DNA from: Polyangia bacterium
Lineage (GTDB): Bacteria > Myxococcota_A > Polyangia > Palsa-1104 > JAEUJZ01
Length of the DNA stretch: 64,000 nucleotides
Assembly: GCA_046351595.1 (NCBI GenBank)
Contig: JAXLYE010000002.1
Location: 1,368,022-1,432,021, forward strand
Direction of reading: 5' to 3'
The number at the start of each line of letters is the position of its first letter. Within the stretch, counting starts at the first letter, position 1. Below are positions 3,295-54,013 of this stretch, in pieces. The position numbers and the translations under genes are program-made. A model generated the notes under the pieces. It was given only the letters and a program-made list of their open reading frames with translations. It was not told the DNA's origin and did not search any database.

Positions 3295-3732
3295 TTAGAC
3301 CTTCAGCGCCAGCTGCATCGGGTGCGTGCCGGCGCGGAACAGCGGGCGCTGCTCGAGCAGCCAGGCGCGGGCCTCGTCGCGGGCGCGGAAGAAGCGGGTC
3401 GGCACCTGCTTGCCGCTGATCAGCTGGATCGCGCGCAGCACCAGCTCGACGCCGATGACAAAGACCGGGCTGATGCCGCTGACCGCGGTGGCGCCGATCG
3501 CGCGGTGGCTGCGGTGGAACTCGGCGAGGAAGCGCCGGGCCTCGGGCGGCAGGCCGAGATCGGTCAGGGCGTCGACCTGGAGCAGCGCATAGCCATACCG
3601 CTCCTCGACGGCGGCGCACTCGCTGAACAGGTGCGCGAGCTCGGCGCGCGTGACCAGGCCGCTGCCCTCCCAGAGGACCAGATCGCCCTCGATGCGGTAG
3701 CGCTGCTGACCGATCCGCTGCCAGTCGCTCAT
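3295..3732 (-). CDS. Hypothetical protein (145 aa)
   Basis: Clean 145-aa ORF convergent with the peptidase gene, 15-bp gap. Not low-complexity. No recognisable motif. Confidence 0.4.
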   Translation of the reverse strand: MSDWQRIGQQRYRIEGDLVLWEGSGLVTRAELAHLFSECAAVEERYGYALLQVDALTDLGLPPEARRFLAEFHRSHRAIGATAVSGISPVFVIGVELVLRAIQLISGKQVPTRFFRARDEARAWLLEQRPLFRAGTHPMQLALKV

Positions 3733-6535: not shown

Positions 6536-7099
6536 CTAACCCCGGCGCAGCAGGTCGGCCATGTCGTCGGCGTGCTCCTCCTCGGCGGCGAGGATCTGCT
6601 CGAGCATGCGCCGCGTCGTCGAGTCGCGGTCGCCGAGGTACTTTACCATCTCGCGGTAGCTGTCGATGGCGACGCGCTCGGCGATCAGGTTCTCCTTGAT
6701 CATGTCCTTGAGGTCCTTGCCCTCGACGTACTCGGCGTGGCTGCGCTCGGTCAGGCCGACCGGCGAGAAGTTCGGCTCGCCGCCGAGCTGCACGATGCGC
6801 TCGGCGATGCGATCGGCGTGGTCCATCTCTTCCTGGGCGTGCTGCGCGAACTCCTCGGCGACCGGCTCGGCGTGGATGCCCGAGGCCATGAAGTAGTGCC
6901 GCTTGTAGCGCAGGACGCAGATAAGCTCGGTGGCCAGCGCGTCGTTGAGCAGCTTGATCACGGTCTCGCGGTTGGCCTGGTAGCTATCGGTGACCGCGCC
7001 CTGCTCGATATCCCGCCGCGCTCGCTCGCGCAGAATGGCCTTATCGACGTTGAACAGCTCTCCGCCCGCGGCGCTCGGCACTTTGTCATCTGCCTTCAT
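6536..7099 (-). CDS. bfr: Bacterioferritin / ferritin-like diiron protein
   Basis: 187 aa. ...ELICVLRYKRHYFMASGIHAEPVAEEFAQHAQEEMDHADRIAERI... matches the Bfr four-helix-bundle ferroxidase pattern. Confidence 0.7.
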   Translation of the reverse strand: MKADDKVPSAAGGELFNVDKAILRERARRDIEQGAVTDSYQANRETVIKLLNDALATELICVLRYKRHYFMASGIHAEPVAEEFAQHAQEEMDHADRIAERIVQLGGEPNFSPVGLTERSHAEYVEGKDLKDMIKENLIAERVAIDSYREMVKYLGDRDSTTRRMLEQILAAEEEHADDMADLLRRG

Positions 7100-7163
7100 G
7101 GCTCTGCTCCCTGTCTCTAGGTGGAAGATTTGAATACGCCTATCGGCTGACTCGCGGACCCGC

Positions 7164-7340
7164 TCAGCTCGTGACCTTCTTCGCCGTGAACAGACCGAGC
7201 ACGAGGAAGATGAGGAACAGCACCAGGGTCAGGCCGAACAGGATCTTCGAGACGCTCGCGGCGCCGTGGGCCACCCCGGTAAAGCCGAAGATGCCGGCGA
7301 TGAGAGAGATGACTGCGAAGATGATCGCCCAGCGAATCAT
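7164..7340 (-). CDS. DUF1328 (UPF0391/YqaE-like) small membrane protein, 58 aa
   Basis: Not in the ORF track because it is under 60 aa. Reverse-complement translation is [58 protein letters not shown], with two TM helices. A GGAGA RBS lies 5 nt upstream of the ATG. It is co-directional with and upstream of bfr. Confidence 0.55.
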
Positions 7341-7761
7341 GACCGTCTCCTTGTGCGCTCTGCCTGGTAGCGCTTTGTTGGAAAGGAGGACACAACAGTG
7401 TCGATAAGGAGGGCCTTATCGTCCTTATCGATAAGGGGCTCCCTTGACGTCCTTATCGATAAGGGGCTCCCTTGACGTCCTTATCGATAAGGGAGCCCCT
7501 TATCGCTGTGTCGGTTCGCTCCTATTTTCGCTTACGATGACATGGCGCTTGCGCCGCGGCCGTAACTTTTTGTTCGTAAGAACGCTGAGCTCGCACGGCC
7601 GGGTAAACCCCTATGAGGCGCTACGCCAACCCGCACAGCCCGCGCATCGTATGCTTGCTGCGCAGACGGCGGTCACCGCAGCGGCCCGAGCGACGACCGA
7701 AACGCCGAGAGAAGCCAAAAAGCTAAAAGGCCAGAAAAGCCAAAAGAGAGGGAAATCGCCA
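7341..7761. promoter_or_regulatory. Divergent promoter region between the DUF1328-bfr operon (minus strand) and the HAD-deaminase gene (plus strand), containing the iterated palindromic array
   Basis: 420-bp non-coding gap. It holds the palindrome array, TTGACG -35-like hexamers and an A-rich stretch (aagccaaaaagctaaaaggccagaaaagccaaaagagaggg) just upstream of the HAD RBS. Confidence 0.45.
7423..7506. repeat. Tandem array of about three copies of a 28-bp unit CCTTATCGATAAGGGGCTCCCTTGACGT, each containing the perfect palindrome CCTTATCGATAAGG
   Basis: Direct reading. The unit occurs at 7423-7450 and 7451-7478 and partially at 7479-7506. Extra half-sites (TCGATAAGG at 7401, CCTTATCG at 7414 and 7501) flank it. 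Each unit also carries a TTGACG hexamer. Confidence 0.75.
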
Positions 7762-9003
7762 ATGGCGCTTGATGCTCTGATCTTCGACATTGATGGCACC
7801 CTGCTCGACACCAACGACCTGCACGTCGAGGCCTGGCGGCAGACGCTCGAGCAGCACGGCTACACCGTCGCCAGCGACCGCATCGAGCAGGAGATCGGCA
7901 AGGGCGGCGATAAGCTGGTGCCGTCGCTGCTCGGCCGCTCGCTCGACAAAAAGGACGGCGACCGGATGCGCAAGCTGCAGCCCGAGCGGTTCGCGGAGCT
8001 CGCGCGGTCGCGCGGCGTGCGGGCGTTCCCGGGCGCGGTCGAGCTCCTGCGCGAGGCGCGCCGGCGCGGCCTCAAGGTGGTGCTGGCGACGTCGAGCCAG
8101 AAGGCGCACGTGCGCGTGCTCGGCGAGACCTCGGGCATCGATCTCGAGCGCGAGGTCGATCACCTGGTCACCGCCGACGACGCCGCCGAGTCCAAGCCGG
8201 CGCCGGACCTGGTCGAGGCCGCGGTGCAGCGGCTCGGCCTGAGCCCGGCGCAGTGCGCGATGGTCGGCGACACGCTGTACGACATGGAGGCGGCCAAGCA
8301 CGCCGGCGTCATCGGGCTGGGCGTGCAGACCGGCTACCAGCCGCCGCGGGAGCTCCTGCGCAACGGCGCGCGCGCCGCTTGGAAGAGCACCAAGGAGCTC
8401 TACGCCGCGCTCGACGAGGTGCTGCGCATCGCCTCGCCGAGCGAGCTGCGGCCGACGCAGGCGGTCCTCGAGGCGCTGATGCGCGAGGCGCTGCGTGAGG
8501 CCGAGGCGGCGCTGGCGCAGGGCGAGATCCCGATCGGCTGCGTGCTGGCCAACGGGCGCGGCGAGATCATCGGGCGCGGCTTCAACCAGCAGACCCGCAC
8601 GCGCGAGCGCACCGCGCACGCCGAGATGGTCGTCTTCCGCAGCGTCGCCGGCCGCATGCCCGACGAGTCAGCGGGCCAAGGAAGCGACGGCCGGGATCAT
8701 ATTCTGGTGAGCACGCTGGAGCCCTGTGTAATGTGTACCGGCGCAGCCATGGAAGCAGCCATCGACACCATTCTCTATGCGCTTGAGGGGCCCGCGGACA
8801 GCGGCACCGGGCGCGTGCTGTGCCCCGAGAGCCCGGCGAGCCAGATGCCGCGCATCGTCGGCGGCGTCCTGCGTGGCGAGAGCCGCGCGCTGCTCGAGCG
8901 CTTCGTGAAGGTCGCCAAGGACCCGATGCAGAAGGCCTTCACCGAGCAGCTCTTGGAGCTGGCGCCGACGCGTGGGCCTCTGCGCAAGCGGGGGGGCTCG
9001 TGA
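7762..9003 (+). CDS. Fusion protein: HAD-superfamily hydrolase (beta-PGM-like) fused to a CDA-fold nucleoside/nucleotide deaminase (TadA-like)
   Basis: ATG 7762 with a GAGGGAA RBS. The N-terminal domain is MALDALIFDIDGTLLDTNDLHVEAW...VGDTLYDMEAAKHAG, carrying the HAD motifs DxDGT and GD. The C-terminal domain is EIPIGCVLANGRGEIIGRGFNQ...HAEMVVF...LEPCVMCTGA, the H(A)E/PCxxC zinc deaminase signature. The 106 codons upstream in the same frame are not coding-like. Confidence 0.7.
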   Translation: MALDALIFDIDGTLLDTNDLHVEAWRQTLEQHGYTVASDRIEQEIGKGGDKLVPSLLGRSLDKKDGDRMRKLQPERFAELARSRGVRAFPGAVELLREARRRGLKVVLATSSQKAHVRVLGETSGIDLEREVDHLVTADDAAESKPAPDLVEAAVQRLGLSPAQCAMVGDTLYDMEAAKHAGVIGLGVQTGYQPPRELLRNGARAAWKSTKELYAALDEVLRIASPSELRPTQAVLEALMREALREAEAALAQGEIPIGCVLANGRGEIIGRGFNQQTRTRERTAHAEMVVFRSVAGRMPDESAGQGSDGRDHILVSTLEPCVMCTGAAMEAAIDTILYALEGPADSGTGRVLCPESPASQMPRIVGGVLRGESRALLERFVKVAKDPMQKAFTEQLLELAPTRGPLRKRGGS

Positions 9004-37046: not shown

Positions 37047-37145
37047 GCACAGCCACTAGACCGAGTCTCGTCCGCTCTCCTCCGGCGGCGGCGCGGCTTG
37101 CGTCCGGCCGGCGTCTGTGTGACGGTCCCGCCGCAAGGAGGAGCA

Positions 37146-38489
37146 ATGACCCGGCGGACCCCGCTTCTGTGTTTGGCGCTCGCCCCGACGCTGCTGAGCT
37201 GTTTTGTGGCCGGCTGCAAGCGCGACGAGGGGCCGGTCGACATGTCGGATCCCATGGACCAGGCGGTCTCGGACCTGGGCCGACCCGACCTCGGCCCGAG
37301 CGATCTGGCGTCGCCGCCGGACCAGGGCGCGGACCTGTCGACCAGGTCTGATCTCGGCGGGCCCGATCTCGGCGGGCCGGCGGACCTCGGCGGGCCGGCG
37401 GATCTGCGCGGGCCGGCGGACCTCGGCGGGCCGCCGACGGATCTGGCGGTGCCGCCGGACCTGCCGGTGCCCGGGGATCTGGGCGGCGGCACGGACCTGG
37501 CGGTGCCGCCCTTGGATCTGCCGGTGCCCGGGGACCTGCGCGGGGCGACGGACCTCGCGATCGGCGCGGACCTGCTCGCGCCGCTGTGCCGCGGGGACAG
37601 CGCGCCCGGGACGATGCGGCGCTTTGCGACCAGCGCGCTCAAGCTCCCGACCACCGCCGCCCCCGCCGCGATCGACCTCGACGGAGACGGGCGCGCCGAG
37701 AACCAGCTCAAGAACATCCTCAGCGCCATCAGCACGCTCGGCATGGACCCGCAGGTGCAGGTGGACGACGCGGTCCGCGGCGGCCAGCTCGTATACCTCC
37801 TGGGCCTCAAGAGCACGTCGCTCGACACGAGCTGCGCCGGCCTCTTGATGAACCGCGCGCTGCCGACCGCGGCGCCGCCCGCCTACGACGGCAGCGACGT
37901 GTTCACGCCGGCGCTGGCGGCGAGCGCGGTGTTCGGCGCGAGCGTGCCGATGGGGCAGCTCGGCACCACGCTGCCCAAGGACCTCAAGGCCGCCGACGAG
38001 GCGACGCTGCCGCTGGCGGTGCCGCTGGGGCCGATGATGGTGACGCTGCCGCTGCGCGGCGTGCACGTGCAGGGCCGGGTCCAGCTCGTCGCCGGCAAGC
38101 CGACGATCAGCGACGGCCAGATCCACGGCGCGGTCGCGGTCACCGACCTCGATCGGGTCGTCTACCCGTCGCTGGCCGCCTCGGTGACGGCGCTGATCAA
38201 CGGCGACCCGATGTCCTCGACCACGCGCACCCTCATCAGCCTGTTCGAGACCTCGACCAGCCCGGTCAGCGTCGCAAAGTGCATGGTCGCGCGGGACTGC
38301 TGCAAGACCAGCCCCAGCACCTGCAAGATCCTGCCGCAGGAGGTGAAGGACTCGGTCGTGGGCTCGCTGTTCGCGCCGGACGTCGAGGTCCTGAACGCCA
38401 CGGGCCAGTGGGAGCCGGTGCGCGGCGGCACGAGCAAGGACGCGATGTCCGTCGGCATCGGCTTCAGCGCCGTGCAGGCGGCGTTCTAG
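37146..38489 (+). CDS. Lipoprotein with tandem (P)DLGG/PADLGG peptide repeats
   Basis: Signal plus lipobox MTRRTPLLCLALAPTLLSCFVAGC. Residues 60-150 are iterated SDLGGPDLGGPADLGGPADLRGPADLGGPP, encoded by near-identical 18-bp DNA repeats around 37352-37447. Confidence 0.55.
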   Translation: MTRRTPLLCLALAPTLLSCFVAGCKRDEGPVDMSDPMDQAVSDLGRPDLGPSDLASPPDQGADLSTRSDLGGPDLGGPADLGGPADLRGPADLGGPPTDLAVPPDLPVPGDLGGGTDLAVPPLDLPVPGDLRGATDLAIGADLLAPLCRGDSAPGTMRRFATSALKLPTTAAPAAIDLDGDGRAENQLKNILSAISTLGMDPQVQVDDAVRGGQLVYLLGLKSTSLDTSCAGLLMNRALPTAAPPAYDGSDVFTPALAASAVFGASVPMGQLGTTLPKDLKAADEATLPLAVPLGPMMVTLPLRGVHVQGRVQLVAGKPTISDGQIHGAVAVTDLDRVVYPSLAASVTALINGDPMSSTTRTLISLFETSTSPVSVAKCMVARDCCKTSPSTCKILPQEVKDSVVGSLFAPDVEVLNATGQWEPVRGGTSKDAMSVGIGFSAVQAAF

Positions 38490-44888: not shown

Positions 44889-47800
44889 TCAGCCGGCCGG
44901 GCTGCCCGAGGCGGGCCAGGACGGCTCTCCGCTCTCGCCACCCAAGACGCGCAGCGCCAGCCGCAGCAGCCCGCGCAGCCGCGGCAGATTGAGGCGCACC
45001 TCGGGCGCTGCCGTCGCCGCCGGCGGCGTCAGCGCGTGCAGGGCGGCCAGGAGGTCGCCCAGGCCGCACAGCGCCCGCGCCTCGGCCTGCTCGTCGACGA
45101 GCCGACGCAGCTCGGGCAGCAGCCGGCGCAGCACCCCGGGCTCGGCCTCGAGCTGCGCCAGGCACGGCGGCAGCCGCCGCAGCGCCTCGTTCGGATCCAG
45201 CGGGAACGGGCGCGGTGCGAGCGCCAGCGCCCGCAGCGCCTGCAGCTTCTCGTGCTCCCGCTCGGTCCGCGCCTCGGCGCCGGGCACGTAGAGCACGGCC
45301 GTCGCCCGCACCAGCGCCGCCAGCTCGTCGGCGTCGCCGAGCAGCGCCGCGCCGCCGACCAGCCGGTGCAGCGCCCGCAGCGCCGCGAAGTACACCGGCC
45401 CCGGATCGCGGGAGGGCTCGGTTATCAGGTGGCGCAGCACGAGGAGCCGCGGCGGCTGCGTCGGCTCGCAGGCGGCCGGCGCCCGGTCCGCGGGCAGCTC
45501 GTCGACGAGCTCGACCAGGAGGCGCGGGAAGCCGAGGCGCTGGCCGAGCGGCAGGAGCCGCGTCACCCACGGCGCGGCCGACGGCGGCGCCGCCTTCTCG
45601 GGCGGGGTCGGCGCGGCCACCGGGGCGCCCAGCACATGACCGCCGAGCAGACCCAGCAGGGCCAGCCACGGCTGCAGCTCGGGCGGGCTGGTGAGCGCCG
45701 TGTCCGCGAGCGCCACCGGCTGCGGTCCCAGCCGCTCCAGCTGCTGCGCCGCCTCGCCCGTCGGCTCGACGTAGGCCAGGGCCGCCAGGCTGACCCGCAC
45801 CGCCGCCGACCCGCTGTCGAGCTGCCGCGCTCCGAGGCGCAGCAGCGCGCGCGCGGCACCGAGCTCGACGGCCCCGTCCGCATCGACCGCACCGACGAGG
45901 CGCTCGGCCAGCGCCCGCTGCAGCCGGGTCGCATCCCCGCCCAGCACCTGCAGCGCCGCGCCCAGCGGGCCGTCCAGGGCGTCGGCGGCCCCGCTCTGGC
46001 CGGCGAGCAGCGACAGCGCCTTCGCCAGCGCCGCCGGCTCCGCCGGGCCCGCCTGCAGCAGCCGCAGCCCGTGCGCCCGCTCCGGCACGCCCGGCAGCTG
46101 CAGGGCCAGCCCGGCCACCACCTCGACCTCGCCGAGCGGCGCGCGCAGAGCCTCCAGCCGGGCGGTCGCCAGCGCGGCGCGGCTGCCGTCGCCGAGCCGG
46201 GCCGCCACCGCGACCATGTGGCGCAGCGCGGCGACATCGTCCGGCACGAGCTCCAGCGCGGCGCCCAGGTCGGCCAGCGCGGCCGCGCCATCCCCCAGCT
46301 CCTCGTCGAGGGCGGCGCGCTCGCGCAGCAGCTCGGCGCGCTCGGTGGCCTGGCCCTCGTCCGGCTGCGCGAGCAGCTCGTCGAGCGTCTCGCGGGCCGC
46401 GGCCGTCTCGTGGAGCGCGCGCTTGAGCGACACGAGCCGCCGCAGCGCGCCGCGGTGTCCCGGGACCTCGTCGAGCAGGCAGCCGAGCTGCTGCTCGGCC
46501 TCGCTGCGGTCGCCGAGCCGAGCCGCCAAGTCGGCCGCCTGCAGCCGCGCCGCCGCCCGCTCGGCCGAGTCGCCGGCGGGCAGGTGCAAAAGGAGCTGCT
46601 TGGCCGCGAGCAGCGCCTCGGCGAGCGCGCCGCGCTGCTCGCACAGGCGCAGCAGCGACGCGGTCGCCGCGACCGCTCCCTCCTGATCGGCGTGCGCGTC
46701 GCACAGCGGCGCGGCCTCGGCGTAGGCGCGCTCGGCGCCGGCGAGGTCCCCGCCGCGCTCGCGCGCCGCACCGAGCGAACGCAGCAGCGCACCGGCGCTC
46801 GGGTACTCGGGCGGGATCACCGGCAGGCGCTGCAACAGCTCGACCGCGGCCTCGGCGCGGCCCGTCGCGAAGGCGCGCTCGGCCAGGCCAGCCAGCGCCA
46901 GCGGCTCGTCGGGTACGAGCGCCAAGAGGGCCTGCGCGTAGCGCTCGGTCGCGGCGCCGTCGCCCTCCTGGCAGCACAGCACGACCAGCCGCCGCAGCGC
47001 CTCCAGGTGGCTGAGCCCCTCGCGCTCCGAGCGCAGCCGCCGCTCCAGCACCTGCCGGCGCGCGCTCGCGTCCGGCCCGCCGTCCAGGCGCAGCAGCCGC
47101 GACGCCGCCTCCAGCCCGTGCGGGCCGCCGAGCGCCACCGCCTCGCCGAGGTAGGCGCGCGCGCGCAGCTCGTCATCGGCGCGCTCGGCGAAGGTCGCGG
47201 CCTCGAGCAGGGCGACGGCGCGCTCGCTGGCGGGCAGGACCGCCGCCGCCCGACCGGCCGCGTCCGCCGCGCCGAGCCACTCACCGCGCCCGGCCAGCGC
47301 CGCCGCGAGGCGCTGCAGCGCCGTCACCGAGCCGAGCTGCCCAGCGCTGCGCAGCGCCGCGAGCGCCCCGCTGTCGTCGCCGCGCAGGGTCAAGAGCCGC
47401 CCGAGCTCGCAGAACAGCTCGGCACGCACGGCGTCCGGGCCGGCGGCACCGGGCTCGGCCGCCTCGGGCTCGGCCTGCAGCGCGCGCAGCTCGCGCTCGA
47501 TCAGCTGCACCGCGCGCTCGATGTCCCCCTCGGTGGTGAGCAGCTCGCGCAGCGCGCGCAGGGCCGGCGGGAAGTCGGGCTGCAGCGCCAGCGCCTCGTG
47601 CAGGAGCGGCTCGGCCGAGCCCGCCGCCGGCAGCTTCTGCAGCACCGCCGCCTTGTCGCACAGGACGCGGGCCCGCTCGCGCGGCGCGTGCAGCCGCGTG
47701 AGCAGCGAGTCGCAGCACGACAGCGCCAGGTACAGATCGCCGCGCTGGAAGGCCAGCGCCAGCTGCCGCTCGATCGGGCGCGGGTCGTCGCCGAGCAGCG

Positions 47801-50800
47801 CCGCGGCGCGGGCCAAGAGCTCCGCCGGTGTCGGCATGCTCAGCGGCAGCGGCGCCGGCGGCGCCTCGTCGAGCGCCGTGAAGTCGGCCGGCAGCGGCGG
47901 CCCGGGCACCGGGCTCTGCTGGCTTTTCGGCAGCGGCCCGTCGCCGGGCTCGGCCAGGAAGTCGGTGGGCACGGCGATGAAGCCGAGGTCGCTCGCGCGC
48001 TCGAGGAACCCGAGCTCCGGCGGGCGCAGCGGCGACGGCGTGCTCGCCGACGCCTGGCTCGGTCGCGGCGCGCCGCCGGCCGCCTCGGTGAGCAGGCTGG
48101 CCAGCAGCAGCGCGCACTCGCCGGCCTCGTCGGGCTCGACGTCGGGCGCGTAGGTCGCGGTCAGCAGGTGGGGCAGCGCCCGCTCGAGGTCCCCCGGGCT
48201 CGGCGAGCTGCACAGGAGCATCCCGAGCAGCGCGTGCGCGGGCCCGAGCTCCTCGGAGCGCAGCAGCAGAAGCTCGAGCTGCCCGAGCGCCTCGCCGCTG
48301 CGCCCGAGGTGGGTGAGCAGCTCGGCGCGCACGAGGTGCAGGCCGGCCGCCCGCCGCGCCCGCGTGCCGAGGCGCCGCAGCTCGCTCTCGCACAGCTCCA
48401 GCACCTTCTGGCCGTGACCGTCGTGGGCGAGTCGGCGCGACAGGCGCCGCAGCCGGCTGAGCGGCCGCTGCGACAGCGCGACCTCGCCGCCGCCCGGTCC
48501 GCGCCCGGCCGTGTCCCCGTCTCCGGTGAGCGCGCCGAGGCTGCACAGCCGCAGCCAGCGGCCCGCGGCGCCCAGCGGATCGCCGACGAGCTCGCACAGC
48601 TCCGCGGCCTGCCACAGCAGGCGGGCGCGCGCCGGCTGCTCGGCCGGATCGTCGGTGAGCAGCGCGAGCTGGCGATCGATCTGGTCCTGCGCCGCCGGCA
48701 GCACGCCGCTGCCGAGGAGCCGCGCCCGCAGCGTCTCGTACAGCGCCGCCTCGCTCGGGTCCCGGCTCGCCGCGTGCTCGATCAGGAAGCGCAGCGCCAA
48801 CAGGGCGTCCTCGGGCCGCGCCATCCCGCCGAGCTCGTCGAGGATCAAGAGGTGCGCGCGCGCGGCGGCCGGTCCGTTGCGCAGGCGCAGCGCCACGGCC
48901 AAGAGCTCGCGCGCCGCGGTGAGCCGGCGCAGGCCCTCGCTGCGTTCGACGTCGCGCTGCAGCATCTGCAGGAGGCGGGGCAGGTCGTGGCTCGCGCGCA
49001 GCCGCGCCAGCAACCGCTCCCGCACCTTCTCGTCGTCGGCGTCGCAGGCGAGCAGCGCGGCGTCGACCTGCGGCAAGAGGCTCGAGCTGCACAGCTCCGC
49101 GGCCTGCGCGAGCAGCGCGCGCTGCATCTCGCCGCTCTCGTAGGTCGACCACATGAGCAGCGCCGCGCCGTACCGCGGCCGGTCGTCCACCGCCGAGAAC
49201 AGCGCCGCTAGCGCCGGCCACGCCAGCGCCCCGCCGCCCTCCTCGATGGCCGCGGCCAGCGTGTCCTCCTCGGTCAGGTAGTCGCCGCGCTGGTGGGCGA
49301 TCTCGGCAAGGCGCAGGTAGACGTGCGGCCGCTCGTCGCGGGGCACGCGCTCGGCCTGCAGCGCGCGGCGGTAGAAGCCCTCGGCCGCGTCGAGGTTGGC
49401 GTTGGCGTAGGCGTGGTGGCCGAGCCCGAGCAGGACCAGCGGCGTCGTGTCACCGCCGAGCTCCAGGGCGCGGCGCAGCGAGGTTTCGGCGCGGTCGTAG
49501 CTGCCCAGCCCGTGGTGCAGGTGCCCGGCGTGGGCGAAGACCGCGGCGGCGTCCGCGGGGCTGCCGCGGGCCGTCAGCGCCTCGCCCGCCGCCTCCCACA
49601 GCGCGACCGCGCGCGGCAGGTCGCCGAGCTGCTGCTGCGCGATCTCGGCGGCCCGACGGTACAGCGCCGCGGCATCGGCGTCCGCGCGCGAGCGGGCGTG
49701 CACGACCAGCGCATCGGCCAGCGCCGACGGCTGCCCCGCGGCCTCGAGCTGGGTGAGCAGGGCGTCCGGATCCAGCCCGGCCTCGATCTGCGCCACCAGC
49801 GCCTCGCGGTGCTGGCCGCGCGCCGAGAGCAGCCGCGCCAGCGCGCGCAGCTCCTCGGGCTCGGCATGGCCGCGCTGGTGCAGGCGGACCAGCGTCGGCA
49901 AAAGATCCGCGGGGCTGCCCGGCGGCGCCTGCAGGAGCTCGGGCATGTCGAGCTGGGCGCGGGCGTGCAGCGCCTCGGTGTGATCGCCGACGGCATCGAG
50001 GTAGCGGCGGGCGGCGCTGAGGTCGCCGAGCTCCTGGCACAGGGCCGCGGCCTTGAGCAGCAGCGGCCGTGGCGCGCCGGGCCCGTTGGGCAGCGCGGCC
50101 CGCAGCTCGCCGAGCGCGGTCGCCGGCGCCAGCGCCTCCAGGCGCTCGAGCAGCTGGTGGTGCGCCGGCGACAGCGGCGCCTCGGGGCGGACGACGGGCG
50201 AGGGCCGGCGCACGCGCTGCGGGGCGAGCGGCGCCAGCGCCGCGGCCAGCACCTGATCGATGGCCAGCTCCAGCGGCGCCACCTCGGCGCCGGGGCCGAG
50301 CTCCGCCAGGCTGGCGCGCGCCTCCTCGGCGGTGCGCTGGGCCAGGGTGTGGGCGCCCTCGCTGAGCGCGCAGCGGGCCGCGCTGAGCAGCGCCAGCGCC
50401 CGCTCCTCGGCGGTGCGGCCGGCTCCGGCGGCGAGCTCGCGGTAGTGCGCGGCAGCTTCGCCGGGATCGCCGCGGCCGAAGGCCACCGCCGCCAGCCCGA
50501 GGCGCGCCTCGGCGTGATCGGGCTTTTCGTCGAGCGCGGCCCGGCACAGCGCCGCCGCCTCCTCGTGGCGCCCGGGCGCGGTCAGCAGGAGCTGCCGGCG
50601 GCGTCCCAGGGCGAGCGAGCGCAGCGATTGGCTCTGCGCCGCCATGTCGTAGGCCGCGAGCGCCGCCGCGGCGTCGCCCGACAGGAGCAGCCGGTCGCCG
50701 ATCTGGACGGGCTCGGCCAGGCCCGGGTGCAGCCCGCTCGCCGGATCCGGGCGGCGGTCACCGTCGTCGTAGCTGTCGCCGCGCCCGGTGCCGCGGTAGG

Positions 50801-51668
50801 CGAGGATCAGCCGCTCGGTGCTGGCGCCGCCCTCGCTCCCGGCTGTGCCGGCGATATCGACGCGGCGCAGCGACGCGAGGGTCGCCCCGCTGGCGTCGGC
50901 GGCGCGGTAGCCGGCGCTCGGCAGCACCGCGAGCAGCATGTCGCCCAGCAGATCCATCCCGAGCTCGTGCAGCCCGTGCGCCCAGGTCAGGCGCAGCCCG
51001 GGCCGCGGCTCGGACTCGGTCGGCTGCAGGCACAGGGACAGCAGCCCGGCCTCGCCGCTGTGCAGGAGCGTGCTCGCCAGCGTGTGCGCCAGCGTCAGGC
51101 CGACCAGCCCCGAGGGCACCGACGCGCCGCCGAGGCCGAACAGCAGCACCTCGCCGTCGCCGAGCTGGAAGCCCAGGCCGAGCGGCTCGTTCGGCTTCTG
51201 CGGCCCGCGCGGCAGCGGCCGGCTGGTGCCGATCGGCAGGCGCAGCGCGCAGAAGGTCGGCGCCGCCTCGCGCGATGGCTCGCCGCGGGCCAGCAGGCTC
51301 TCGGCGGTCAGGCGGGCGAGCACGCGCAGCTCGGGCCGGCCGTCGCGGGTGCCCAGCCTCACCCGCAGCCAGTCGGGCACCGGCTCGCGCGGGCCCTCGC
51401 GCGAAACCAGCGCCGCGCCGGGGTCGGTCGAGCTGCCCGAGCCGCCCGCGAGCCCCGGCACCGCGCGCCGCCCGAGCAGCGACAGCGTACGCCCGCGCAG
51501 CGGCAGCCCGCGCAGCCGCAGGTCGAGCGCCCGGACATCCAGGACGAGCTCGGCCGAGAGCACCCGACCGCGACGGTGGCGCGCCTCGCTGCCGGGCCGC
51601 CCCAGCAGGTCGACCTCGAGCTGGCTCACCTGCACCACGGCCGGCTCGTCGCCGTAGAGCGCGGGCGC
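44889..51668 (-). CDS. Giant (about 2,260 aa) Ala/Leu/Arg-rich TPR-like repeat protein with a non-repetitive N-terminal domain of about 350 aa
   Basis: The track ORF runs 44889-52994, but gatC occupies 52014-52379 on the opposite strand, so the real start must lie below 52014. A candidate GTG is around 51668 (LVAPALYGD...). The body is degenerate helical-repeat sequence (...AEARLGLAAVAFGRGDPGEAAAHYREL..., ...YRRALQAERVPRDERPHVYLRLAEIAHQRGDY...). Confidence 0.55.
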   Translation of the reverse strand, partial: APALYGDEPAVVQVSQLEVDLLGRPGSEARHRRGRVLSAELVLDVRALDLRLRGLPLRGRTLSLLGRRAVPGLAGGSGSSTDPGAALVSREGPREPVPDWLRVRLGTRDGRPELRVLARLTAESLLARGEPSREAAPTFCALRLPIGTSRPLPRGPQKPNEPLGLGFQLGDGEVLLFGLGGASVPSGLVGLTLAHTLASTLLHSGEAGLLSLCLQPTESEPRPGLRLTWAHGLHELGMDLLGDMLLAVLPSAGYRAADASGATLASLRRVDIAGTAGSEGGASTERLILAYRGTGRGDSYDDGDRRPDPASGLHPGLAEPVQIGDRLLLSGDAAAALAAYDMAAQSQSLRSLALGRRRQLLLTAPGRHEEAAALCRAALDEKPDHAEARLGLAAVAFGRGDPGEAAAHYRELAAGAGRTAEERALALLSAARCALSEGAHTLAQRTAEEARASLAELGPGAEVAPLELAIDQVLAAALAPLAPQRVRRPSPVVRPEAPLSPAHHQLLERLEALAPATALGELRAALPNGPGAPRPLLLKAAALCQELGDLSAARRYLDAVGDHTEALHARAQLDMPELLQAPPGSPADLLPTLVRLHQRGHAEPEELRALARLLSARGQHREALVAQIEAGLDPDALLTQLEAAGQPSALADALVVHARSRADADAAALYRRAAEIAQQQLGDLPRAVALWEAAGEALTARGSPADAAAVFAHAGHLHHGLGSYDRAETSLRRALELGGDTTPLVLLGLGHHAYANANLDAAEGFYRRALQAERVPRDERPHVYLRLAEIAHQRGDYLTEEDTLAAAIEEGGGALAWPALAALFSAVDDRPRYGAALLMWSTYESGEMQRALLAQAAELCSSSLLPQVDAALLACDADDEKVRERLLARLRASHDLPRLLQMLQRDVERSEGLRRLTAARELLAVALRLRNGPAAARAHLLILDELGGMARPEDALLALRFLIEHAASRDPSEAALYETLRARLLGSGVLPAAQDQIDRQLALLTDDPAEQPARARLLWQAAELCELVGDPLGAAGRWLRLCSLGALTGDGDTAGRGPGGGEVALSQRPLSRLRRLSRRLAHDGHGQKVLELCESELRRLGTRARRAAGLHLVRAELLTHLGRSGEALGQLELLLLRSEELGPAHALLGMLLCSSPSPGDLERALPHLLTATYAPDVEPDEAGECALLLASLLTEAAGGAPRPSQASASTPSPLRPPELGFLERASDLGFIAVPTDFLAEPGDGPLPKSQQSPVPGPPLPADFTALDEAPPAPLPLSMPTPAELLARAAALLGDDPRPIERQLALAFQRGDLYLALSCCDSLLTRLHAPRERARVLCDKAAVLQKLPAAGSAEPLLHEALALQPDFPPALRALRELLTTEGDIERAVQLIERELRALQAEPEAAEPGAAGPDAVRAELFCELGRLLTLRGDDSGALAALRSAGQLGSVTALQRLAAALAGRGEWLGAADAAGRAAAVLPASERAVALLEAATFAERADDELRARAYLGEAVALGGPHGLEAASRLLRLDGGPDASARRQVLERRLRSEREGLSHLEALRRLVVLCCQEGDGAATERYAQALLALVPDEPLALAGLAERAFATGRAEAAVELLQRLPVIPPEYPSAGALLRSLGAARERGGDLAGAERAYAEAAPLCDAHADQEGAVAATASLLRLCEQRGALAEALLAAKQLLLHLPAGDSAERAAARLQAADLAARLGDRSEAEQQLGCLLDEVPGHRGALRRLVSLKRALHETAAARETLDELLAQPDEGQATERAELLRERAALDEELGDGAAALADLGAALELVPDDVAALRHMVAVAARLGDGSRAALATARLEALRAPLGEVEVVAGLALQLPGVPERAHGLRLLQAGPAEPAALAKALSLLAGQSGAADALDGPLGAALQVLGGDATRLQRALAERLVGAVDADGAVELGAARALLRLGARQLDSGSAAVRVSLAALAYVEPTGEAAQQLERLGPQPVALADTALTSPPELQPWLALLGLLGGHVLGAPVAAPTPPEKAAPPSAAPWVTRLLPLGQRLGFPRLLVELVDELPADRAPAACEPTQPPRLLVLRHLITEPSRDPGPVYFAALRALHRLVGGAALLGDADELAALVRATAVLYVPGAEARTEREHEKLQALRALALAPRPFPLDPNEALRRLPPCLAQLEAEPGVLRRLLPELRRLVDEQAEARALCGLGDLLAALHALTPPAATAAPEVRLNLPRLRGLLRLALRVLGGESGEPSWPASGSPAG

Positions 51669-52013
51669 CACGAGCGAGAGCCGGCTCTGGCTCGGCCCTA
51701 CGCTGGCCAAGGAGAGCGCGGGGACGGCAGCGGGCTGTATGGCAGTCTCCGGCAAGACGCCTTCTAAGTACCACAGTCGGGCACTCTGCGGGCGACCGAG
51801 CCGGAGCGCGCCGCGCCGGCCCGCCGCTTTCTGGTGTCCTATTGCGCGGGTACCGGACCGTGCCGGGGCCGCGGCCACGCGCGGGTCGTGCGCGTGCGGG
51901 CCCGGGCCGTGCCGCTGGCGCGCGCCGCATCGGCCACACTGCGGGCCTCGGCCGCACGTCCCGCTGCGGCGGCTCTCGCTTTGCGCAGGACTGGCGATAT
52001 AGACTGCACCGCC

Positions 52014-52379
52014 ATGTATTCCGGTAAGACCCAGGGCGGGCTTTCCGCCGAAGAGATCCGCACGACCGCGGAGATGGCGCGCCTGCAGCTCGACGAGAGC
52101 GAGCTCGCGCAGCTGGCCGGCGAGCTGTCCGGCATCCTCGCGCACGCGGAGCTGCTGAAGGAGATCGACGTCTCGGCCGTGCCGTCGACTAAGCACGCGG
52201 TGCCGATGAGCTGCCCGCTGCGCGGCGACCTGGTCGGGCCGCACGATCCGATCGAGGCGGTGCTGCGCAACGCGCCGGCGCGCGAGGCCACGTTCTTCTC
52301 GGTGCCAGCGGTGTTCGCGAGCACCGGCGCGGCGACGGGCGCGGCGATGGGCGCGAGCGACGACTACGAGGAAGGGTAG
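52014..52379 (+). CDS. gatC: Asp-tRNA(Asn)/Glu-tRNA(Gln) amidotransferase subunit C
   Basis: LSAEEIRTTAEMARLQLDESELAQLAGELSGILAHAELLKEIDV is the GatC signature. It lies immediately upstream of gatA. Confidence 0.8.
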   Translation: MYSGKTQGGLSAEEIRTTAEMARLQLDESELAQLAGELSGILAHAELLKEIDVSAVPSTKHAVPMSCPLRGDLVGPHDPIEAVLRNAPAREATFFSVPAVFASTGAATGAAMGASDDYEEG

Positions 52380-52383
52380 GGCG

Positions 52384-54013
52384 ATGACCACGGCAGGTTT
52401 TACTGGCGTCGCAAGCGTGAGCGACGAGCTGGGCGGTGTCGTCGGGCTGGCCGAGGCGGTGCGCGCCGGGCGGGTCTCGGCGGTCGAGGTGACGCGGGCG
52501 TATCTCCAGCGCATCGCCGCGCTCGACCCGCGGCTCGGCTGCTTCCTGCACGTCGACGAGGCGGGCGCGCTGCAGGCGGCGGCGGCGGTGGACGCGCAGG
52601 TCCGCGGCGGCAGCGGCAGCGAGCTCTCGCTGGCCGGCGTGCCGGTGGCGCTCAAGGACAACCTGTGCACGGCCGGGCTGCCGACGACGGCGGGCTCGAA
52701 GATCCTCGCCGGCTTCGTGCCGCCGTACGATGCGACGGTGGTGGCGCGGCTCAAGGCGGCCGGCGCGATCGTGCTCGGGAAGCTCAACCTCGACGAGTTC
52801 GCGATGGGCAGCTCGAACGAGCGCTCGGCCTTCTTCCCGTGCAAAAACCCGTGGGACGAAGCGCGCGTGCCGGGCGGCAGCTCGGGCGGCGCGGCGGCGG
52901 CGGTGGCGGCGGACCTGTGCGCGCTGGCGCTGGGCTCGGACACCGGCGGCTCGATCCGCCAGCCGGCGGCGCTGTGCGGGGTGACCGGGCTCAAGCCGAC
53001 CTACGGCCGCGTGTCGCGCTACGGGCTCATCGCCTTCGCCAGCTCGCTCGATCAGGTGGGGCCGCTTTCGCGCAGCGCGCACGACGCGGCGGCGGCGCTG
53101 CAGGTGATCGGCGGGCCCGACCCATTCGACGCGACGAGCCTCGGCGGGGCGCACGGCGAGCCGCGCGATTACTTGCACGCGTGCAACCAAGCCAGCCCCA
53201 AGCGCCTCTTGCGCGGGCTGCGCATCGGGCTGCCGCGCGAATATTTCCAGGCCGGTCTCGATCCGCAGATCGCCTCGTGCGTGCACGGCGCGATCGAGGC
53301 GCTGCGCAGCGAGGGCGCCGAAACCGTCGAGGTGTCGCTGCCGCTGACCCAGTACGCGGTCGCCATCTACTACCTGATCGCCACGGCCGAGGCCTCGAGC
53401 AACCTGGCGCGCTACGACGGCGTGCGCTACGGCCTGCGCGTGACGCCGCGCCCCGACGAGCTTGCGCCCGGCGAGAGCGCGCTCGCGGCCCTGTACAAGC
53501 GCTCGCGCGCGGCGGGCTTCGGCGCCGAGGTGAAGCGCCGCATCCTGCTCGGCACCTACGTGCTGCGCTCGGGCTACTACGACGCATACTACCGGCGCGC
53601 CAGCCAGGTGCGCACGCTGGTCGCGCGCGAGTTCGCGGCGGCGTTCGAGAAGTGCGACGTGCTGGCGACGCCGACCTCGCCGGTCGCGGCCTTCCGCCTG
53701 GGCGAGCGCCTGGGCGAGCACACCGGCGATCCGCTGTCGATGTACCTGGCCGACATCTACACCATCGGCGCGAACCTGGCCGGGCTGCCGGGCATCTCGG
53801 TGCCGTGCGGCTTCGTCACCGCGCCCCCTGGCCCAGACGGCAACGACGACCGAGACGGCGGGCGGCCGCTGCCGGCGGGGCTGCAGCTCATCGGACCGGC
53901 GCTGCACGACGACCGCGTGCTGGCGGTGGCGACGGCGTACCAGCACCTGAGCGACTGGCACAAGCGGCGGCCGTCGCTCACCCCGCGCGCCGACGCCGAG
54001 GCGAAGGTGCCCC

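Follow-up and report, generated by a model that had tools for sequence, protein, structure and literature searches.

The divergent locus and its genes

The DNA that we analysed is a 64,000-nucleotide stretch of a Polyangia bacterium contig, referred to as the window, and has the content of ordinary chromosome (selB, gatA/B, ileS, and Ser/Thr kinase genes). The repeat array described here is located in a 421-bp intergenic gap with divergent gene pairs on either side. The features flanking the array are the following.

6536 to 7099, minus strand: Dps-like (DpsL/BrnD-type) ferritin-fold protein (8w1d, 7.3e-75), annotated elsewhere as "bacterioferritin"
7164 to 7340, minus strand: DUF1328 small membrane protein (PF07043, 8.5e-13), first gene of the leftward operon
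7712 to 7746, plus strand: A-rich short tandem repeats with periods of 8 and 17 before the HAD start codon, hypervariable among relatives
7762 to 9003, plus strand: HAD hydrolase-cytidine/tRNA-type deaminase fusion, matching an NCBI protein of a Polyangia bacterium MAG at 100% identity
9000 to 10274, plus strand: VKOR-DsbA fusion, with the start inferred from the 424-aa gene call in L190

The second gene of the leftward operon had been labelled bfr in an earlier note on this DNA. Its product scores 60.3 bits against the bacterioferritin model TIGR00754, for which the cut-off is 125.55, and its best solved relative is the DPS-like protein 8w1d, so that the gene, going by these sequence matches, is one for a DpsL/BrnD-type Dps-like protein and not for a bacterioferritin. 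For a protein of this type, iron storage is no likelier a connection than oxidative or stationary-phase stress, which weakens the iron side of the suggested iron- or redox-responsive control. The ferritin-fold protein is about 70% identical to Bordetella proteins and is too conserved for tracking phylogeny. A family search with a 145-aa conserved neighbour (3295 to 3732) yielded no match.

A structured leader upstream of the HAD gene, which had also been suggested, was rejected: the leader folds with a z-score of +0.33, indicating no excess structure, Rfam gives no credible match, and the A-rich 3' part is hypervariable, with an indel-rich alignment among the relatives.

Anatomy of the array

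Tandem Repeats Finder reports a repeat at 7420 to 7501 (no strand assigned) with a period of 28, 2.9 copies, 96% matches, and a score of 148, which is the top-scoring non-coding tandem repeat of the window among the matches listed (150 of 190). This agrees with the earlier description of tandem 28-bp repeats in a divergent promoter region. The 14-mer CCTTATCGATAAGG has three exact copies (at 7423, 7451, and 7479), where about 0.01 would be expected by chance, and no further copy with up to two mismatches is found in the rest of the 64-kb window. The half-site CCTTATCG occurs 10 times in the 64 kb against 0.47 expected, with nine of the ten occurrences inside 7402 to 7505. An independent assembly of the data, a Logan contig (SRR26348422), reaches into the repeat and stops within the array at GGGCTCCCTTGACG|TCCTTATCGATAAGGGAGCC, the junction between an inner and the terminal unit, and its sequence downstream of the break is identical to the window. 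A contig end in this position is what a k-mer assembler would be expected to produce at an exact duplication of 56 bp, and the break inside the array of an independent contig indicates that the repeat is present in the raw reads. We therefore rejected an assembly artefact as the origin. The array is genuine, as are its three CCTTATCGATAAGG palindromes, and both exceed the chance expectation by a wide margin.

Several details of the first description needed correction. CCTTATCGATAAGG does occur in three copies, but of the 28-bp units only the first two are identical, at 28 of 28 positions (7423 to 7450 and 7451 to 7478), and the third unit matches at only 22 of 28. The hexamer TTGACG, previously assigned to every unit, is found in two of them (7444 and 7472, HAD-sense strand), and where at least five TTATCGATAA dyads had been counted there are three, the extra ones at 7402, 7414, and 7498 being lone half-sites. 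A 28-bp step corresponds to 2.67 helical turns, or a rotation of about 240 degrees per step, and does not put the sites on alternating faces. That the array is not a CRISPR was correctly recognised, as the units stand head to tail without unique spacers.

We prefer to parse the array into four inverted repeats with centre spacings of 27.5, 28, and 28 bp. The units and the palindromes at their junctions are listed here, all without assigned strand.

7402 to 7421: unit 1, CGATAAGG-AGGG-CCTTATCG, retaining the ancestral DUF1328-side flank CAGTGT
7429 to 7449: unit 2, degenerate, CGATAAGGG-GCT-CCCTTGACG, with two mismatches and the loop inverted relative to unit 4
7457 to 7477: unit 3, identical in sequence to unit 2
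7485 to 7505: unit 4, a perfect 9+3+9 repeat, CGATAAGGG-AGC-CCCTTATCG, retaining the ancestral right flank TGTGTCGG
7423 to 7436, 7451 to 7464, and 7479 to 7492: copies 1 to 3 of the 14-bp junction palindrome CCTTATCGATAAGG, without counterpart in relatives

With the units in parentheses, the left half of the array reads on the plus strand ACAGTGT (CGATAAGG AGGG CCTTATCG) T CCTTAT(CGATAAGGG GCT CCCTTGACG) T, and the right half reads CCTTAT(CGATAAGGG GCT CCCTTGACG) T CCTTAT(CGATAAGGG AGC CCCTTATCG) CTGTGTCGG. The outer units 1 and 4 are perfect, whereas the inner units 2 and 3 have two substitutions in one arm, changing TTATCG to TTGACG. Over 17 nt, the inner units are at the same time perfectly reverse-complementary to the terminal unit (7489 to 7505 for unit 2), including the asymmetric loop (GCT versus AGC), and are for this reason most simply explained as inverted copies; the loops of the four units run forward, reverse, reverse, forward. 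On this parse, the CCTTATCGATAAGG and TTATCGATAA dyads are by-products of the junctions where the arms of adjacent units abut.

Comparison with relatives

Contig look-ups and a metagenome scan provided three loci from same-genus relatives with an identical gene order.

L109 (ERZ650309): HAD protein 92% identical, single repeat CCGATAAGGGAGCCCCTTATCA
L001 (SRR11567529): HAD protein 87% identical, single repeat TCGATAAGGGAGGCCCTTATCA
L189 (SRR25436053): DUF1328 protein identical to that of the window, single repeat TCGATAAGGGAGACCCTTATCG

Each of the three has exactly one inverted repeat of the form GATAAGGG-N3-CCCTTATC at the orthologous position and with the same flanks. Unit 4 of the window aligns with this single repeat, and the four-way alignment has an 83-bp gap in the relatives opposite units 1 to 3. 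The comparison thereby shows, at the level of the aligned sequences, that the array is an amplification private to this genome, from one to four copies of a single 19- to 21-bp GATAAGGG-N3-CCCTTATC repeat. Neither the TTATCGATAA dyad nor TTGACG is present in the three relatives, which have TTATC(G/A) in place of the latter. The multi-site design can thus no longer be regarded as a conserved arrangement, nor the TTATCGATAA dyad as its core unit; the conserved unit is GATAAGGG-N3-CCCTTATC, and the dyad is found only at junctions made by the amplification. The 28/28 identity of the two 28-bp units points to a recent event. It probably proceeded in two steps, with palindrome-driven template switching producing an inverted copy and slipped-strand duplication of the 28-bp unit following.

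The arms of the repeat are invariant at all 16 positions in the four genomes, with the centre base varying between C, G, and A. Because the four genomes are so close, sharing 83% of their four-fold degenerate sites without any change, this invariance gives a P value of only about 0.05. The symmetry is confined to the 8- to 9-bp arms and does not extend into the flanks in the four-genome comparison. Further away, CCCTTATCG is still present at the equivalent position in the locus L003 (ferritin 80% identical), its partner arm there being degenerate (ATAATCGGG ATAT CCCTTATCG); L003 has two additional AT-flanked GGG-N3-4-CCC dyads. In L004 and L008 no repeat was found at the orthologous position, where the sequence is unrelated. 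When metagenomes were searched for the HAD-deaminase protein, 80 loci were obtained, and since only L109 among them shares the gene order, wider phylogenetic footprinting was impossible.

Promoter context and possible functions of the repeat

The block to the right of unit 4, TGTGTCG..TCGCTCCTATTTTCGCTTACGATGACAT, is invariant in the four genomes, and two candidate promoter elements fall in or next to it.

7500 to 7528, plus strand: weak candidate sigma-70-like promoter of the HAD operon (-35 TTATCG, 17-nt spacer, -10 TATTTT)
7532 to 7542, minus strand: 11-mer TGTCATCGTAA at the right end of the invariant block, upstream of DUF1328

An exact copy of the 11-mer TGTCATCGTAA precedes DUF1328 in the window and in L001, L109, L189, L003, and L004 to L006, with a chance expectation of about 0.05 per window. 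The L003 and L004 to L006 lineages are otherwise unalignable; in all, the element has been retained ahead of DUF1328-dps operons in three lineages. We take it as a putative extended -10 (TGn + CATCGT) for DUF1328-dpsL transcription, in which case the ancestral repeat would lie in a long 5' UTR, at about +20 to +45. For the HAD operon, the best sigma-70-like candidate appears to be TTATC(G/A)-N17-TATTTT, which scores 7 to 8 out of 12, below the scan threshold, and is invariant in the four genomes (the -35 is TTATCA in L109 and L001). The right arm of unit 4 forms its -35. A promoter scan of both strands from 7000 to 7900 reported no promoter-like site, and the promoter/terminator scan no terminator-like site at the array region. 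TATTTT is absent in L003 and L004, and the divergent HAD gene is likewise missing where the contig permits the check, a pattern that is consistent with TATTTT belonging to the HAD promoter.

We consider a putative operator of a dimeric DNA-binding regulator to be the single most likely function of the ancestral repeat, tentatively and with a probability of roughly 0.45. The 8-bp arms are symmetric with their centres 11 bp apart, which corresponds to one helical turn, they are AT-rich (GATAA) in a genome of 72.7% GC, and the repeat adjoins the conserved core block with the TGTCATCGTAA 11-mer and TTATC(G/A)-N17-TATTTT. The invariance of the arms around a variable centre base, the lack of a second copy in the window, and the partial counterpart in L003 also speak for this reading. 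Such an operator would overlap the candidate HAD -35 and lie about +20 to +45 past the predicted DUF1328-dpsL extended -10; being at both candidate promoters, a bound dimer would repress one or both operons. Through the amplification, a further intact site would be gained at a distance of 83.5 bp, or about eight turns and in phase (units 1 and 4), together with two weakened sites in the inner units, and these extra sites could strengthen or cooperatively sharpen repression or be near neutral. The earlier proposal of a multi-operator array for a dimeric regulator is thus retained in its operator part, still the likeliest, and loses its multiplicity as a general property, the relatives having a single site.

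Several findings count against the operator. Both inner units have damaged arms, which would not be expected from selection for extra operators. The arm conservation reaches only P of about 0.05, both promoters are predicted, and the plus-strand candidate scores no higher than 7 to 8 out of 12. Among the window ORFs scanned, there is no transcription-factor gene within about 25 kb of the array, the nearest regulator genes, of the TetR family and the OmpR type, being 33.7 kb and 38.5 kb away, respectively, and no second genomic site or regulon for the repeat is known in the sequences scanned. A full-text literature search for the motif strings returned primer or barcode matches only.

The motif was also compared with the sites of known regulators. 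A MerR-type reading, with the dyad in a 19-bp spacer after TTGACG, was rejected, as no -10 follows and TTGACG is derived. An OxyR or LysR T-N11-A reading fails on the spacing, which is N13 here, and a CsoR/RcnR-type reading fails on the reversed order of the G and C tracts. The hexamers GATAAG/CTTATC resemble the GATAAT/ATTATC hexamer of the Fur box (GATAATGATAATCATTATC) at five of six positions. In the array, however, they are 7 bp apart (GATAAG-GGNNNCC-CTTATC) or everted and abutting in the junction palindromes, and direct sequence comparison finds neither the 6-6-1-6 nor the 7-1-7 (19-bp) Fur layout. The statement that the sequence is not a Fur box therefore holds, with the hexamer alike and the spacing and orientation different.

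Among the closest parallels are arrays of the MetJ and IdeR kind. MetJ met-boxes are 8-bp palindromes occurring in tandem in variable copy numbers of two to five, and tandem IdeR boxes are located upstream of Mycobacterium tuberculosis bfrB. As in these systems, short symmetric sites stand head to tail beside a promoter, where their number can tune occupancy and cooperativity, and as with IdeR the promoter drives an iron-storage or stress gene. In contrast to them, the multi-copy state is found here in one genome, two of the four copies are degenerate, and the motif matches neither the met-box nor the IdeR box.

An alternative that we regard as unlikely, though well worth considering, is that the repeat acts at the RNA level, as a hairpin with a 9-bp stem and a 3-nt loop in the DUF1328-dpsL 5' UTR, where it might affect mRNA stability or translation or be bound by an sRNA or an RNA-binding factor, and where the amplification would mean more hairpins. 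The repeat would indeed be within the 5' UTR if TGTCATCGT is the -10; UTRs of about 105 to 170 nt are predicted in all lineages, and the hairpin is predicted in every same-genus relative. The window array folds with a z-score of -6.75 as RNA (-8.9 as DNA), and the UTRs of L003 and L004, which differ in sequence, are also structured (z = -1.9 and -4.0). The closest relatives, by contrast, have unremarkable UTR folding (z = -0.29, -1.37, and -2.58), and Rfam offers no credible match: a search of 7000 to 8000 with permissive thresholds gave two sub-threshold eukaryotic miRNA matches in the array (E = 0.12 and 0.53). The sole variation at the ninth pair, beside the 8-bp arms, changes C-G to U.G in DUF1328-sense RNA, where the opposite sense would give C.A; it fits an RNA stem equally well and in this respect counts against the operator. 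The stem is nevertheless AT-rich in a 73% GC genome and conserved in sequence rather than covarying, with no compensatory double change among the compared genomes. A precedent exists in the Pseudomonas PA4880 (brnD) gene, an orthologous family member regulated via its 5' UTR by PrrF sRNAs (PMC13104616). The two cases share the protein family (8w1d, 7e-75) and a long 5' UTR as regulatory target; they differ in the host, here a myxobacterium-like member of the Polyangia, and in that a perfect DNA palindrome suits protein binding at least equally.

It is rather improbable, by our estimate, that the repeat has no regulatory function at all and is a low-copy REP/BIME-like selfish palindrome, or an unstable quasi-palindrome expanded by slippage, tolerated in a long intergenic region. 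The copy number differs, one versus four, between very close relatives with nothing else changed, the 28/28 duplication is very recent, the substitutions damage the inner arms, and the same intergenic region contains a second hypervariable tandem repeat. The mixed unit orientation is as in BIME clusters, and the arm conservation barely exceeds the neutral expectation. The REP and BIME elements of enterobacteria and pseudomonads are likewise imperfect palindromes of about 20 to 35 bp that form clusters of mixed orientation, with short linkers between them and an unstable local copy number. REPs, however, number hundreds of dispersed copies, most often found at the 3' ends of genes, and are linked to RAYT transposases, whereas this repeat occupies a divergent promoter region, atypical for REPs, where it abuts the conserved core, and is confined to a single locus in the data scanned. 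Its retention at the same spot in four genomes, and in part in L003, also argues against a neutral passenger.

The search for dispersed copies covered the window, related loci, and genome, plasmid, and phage collections. No other copy with up to three mismatches is present in the 64-kb window (0.02 expected), and none elsewhere in about 100 related loci, comprising other same-genus contigs and the 80 HAD-homologue loci. We scanned one genome per species from 185,579 species, a collection that does not include the source genome, for exact GATAAGGGNNNCCCTTATC and obtained 91 single matches, compared with about 139 expected by chance in 596 Gb when 16 bases are specified and the pattern is self-complementary. 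None of these genomes has two or more matches, and none of the 91 matches is myxobacterial or near a ferritin, DUF1328, HAD, or VKOR homologue. A blastn search of plasmid and phage collections with the array plus core block gave no match, and no transposase gene (Y1, RAYT, or IS) was found among the window ORFs scanned. The possibility raised in the earlier note, that the unit might be a dispersed MITE/REP-like element, accordingly finds no support in any of these data sets, though a low-copy family confined to the source genome would be compatible with them.

A variant of the operator reading, which we hold to be distinctly improbable, is a "contingency" operator with variable copy number, in which the identical 28-bp units would slip against each other and so alter how many regulator sites are present. 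If true, it would imply heritable tuning or phase variation of the Dps-like operon and/or HAD-VKOR within populations. The nested promoter duplication suggested previously, in which repeated TTGACG hexamers would act as -35 elements and give the HAD operon several starts, can be dismissed as very unlikely, for although the hexamers at 7444 and 7472 are on the HAD-sense strand, TTGACG is a derived substitution of the relatives' TTATC(G/A), neither copy is followed by a -10-like hexamer 16 to 18 bp downstream, and the promoter scan is blank on both strands from 7000 to 7900.

We regard the array as an amplification, private to this strain, of a promoter-proximal palindrome that is specific to the genus. 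It represents a new example of a well-known class of cis element, and whether it is an operator or neutral, no general concept is altered. If the repeat is neutral, it would provide a clear case of palindromes seeding local repeat expansion in promoter DNA, and a caution that repeat multiplicity should not be taken as design. If it is an operator, it would show where an uncharacterised regulator binds to control a Dps-like operon for oxidative or stationary-phase protection in the Polyangia, a poorly studied and mostly uncultured group, and the natural one-copy and four-copy variants would offer a ready experiment on how operator number tunes repression.

The Dps-like gene and a conserved 11-mer upstream of its operon

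The "bacterioferritin" gene (window 6536-7099, minus strand) has 8w1d as its best solved relative (7e-75), and its product scores under the cut-off of the bfr model. The product is a DpsL/BrnD-type Dps-like protein, a type whose gene is partnered in every case here by one for the DUF1328 small membrane protein.

The 11-mer TGTCATCGTAA occurs as an exact match in three lineages, 120-200 nt 5' of the DUF1328-dps operons, and the intergenic DNA of these lineages is unalignable apart from it.

Occurrences of TGTCATCGTAA in the window, in the same-genus relatives (L001, L109, L189) and in more distant lineages (L003, L004)
Window 7532-7542, minus strand
L001 2781-2791
L109 1393-1403
L189 1381-1391
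L003 179-189
L004 4472-4482

The 11-mer may serve the DUF1328-dps stress operon as an extended -10 element, or as some other signal for its promoter or a regulator.

The predicted DUF1328 5' UTR contains the following pairing elements.
Window 7341-7400 with 7515-7525, minus strand, predicted pairing elements

The single CCUCC element of this UTR reads GUCCUCC, with CCUUC in L189, and is partnered in the predicted folds by a 5'-proximal AGGAGCG; judged by sequence, the ribosome-binding AAGGAG could be its alternative partner. The arrangement is suggestive of a switch.

The region 5' of the HAD start codon

The A-rich stretch directly 5' of the HAD start codon (window 7712-7746) is composed of short tandem repeats, the unit and copy number of which vary among close relatives, from AAGCCAAA-like units in the window to a 14-15-nt unit that recurs about four times in L001 (about 2540-2625). 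It forms a second hypervariable repeat within the same intergenic region as the palindrome array.

The HAD Shine-Dalgarno region of L001 and L189 is (C)GATAAGGAA, a copy of the half-site of the palindrome repeat; the window and L109 read GAGAGGGAAA there.
L001 about 2520-2535, HAD-sense, directly 5' of the start codon, (C)GATAAGGAA
L189 about 1170-1185, (C)GATAAGGAA

The presence of GATAAGGAA at this position could be a coincidence, or it could be a half-site.

Other features of the window

A gene for a 145-148-aa protein, which has no match in Pfam or NCBIfam, adjoins a PUA-methyltransferase gene in a gene order kept in the window and L003, where a SET-domain gene also adjoins it.
Window 3295-3732, minus strand, 145-148-aa protein gene
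L003 4008-4454, 145-148-aa protein gene

Long nested tandem repeats with periods of 18, 36, 57, and 75 and a score of up to 194 (window 37353-37575) sit within a 463-aa ORF (37098-38489), which has no Pfam match and probably encodes a repetitive low-complexity protein. A very long ORF (window 44889-52994, minus strand; 2701 aa by the GC3 criterion) is overlapped by a long ORF on the opposite strand.

Palindrome matches in other genera

Neptuniibacter, with three species, and Oceanicaulis, with two genomes, are among the genera with exact matches to GATAAGGGNNNCCCTTATC in the genome scan (L018 to L108), which suggests that both carry small conserved palindromes without relation to the repeat locus of the window.
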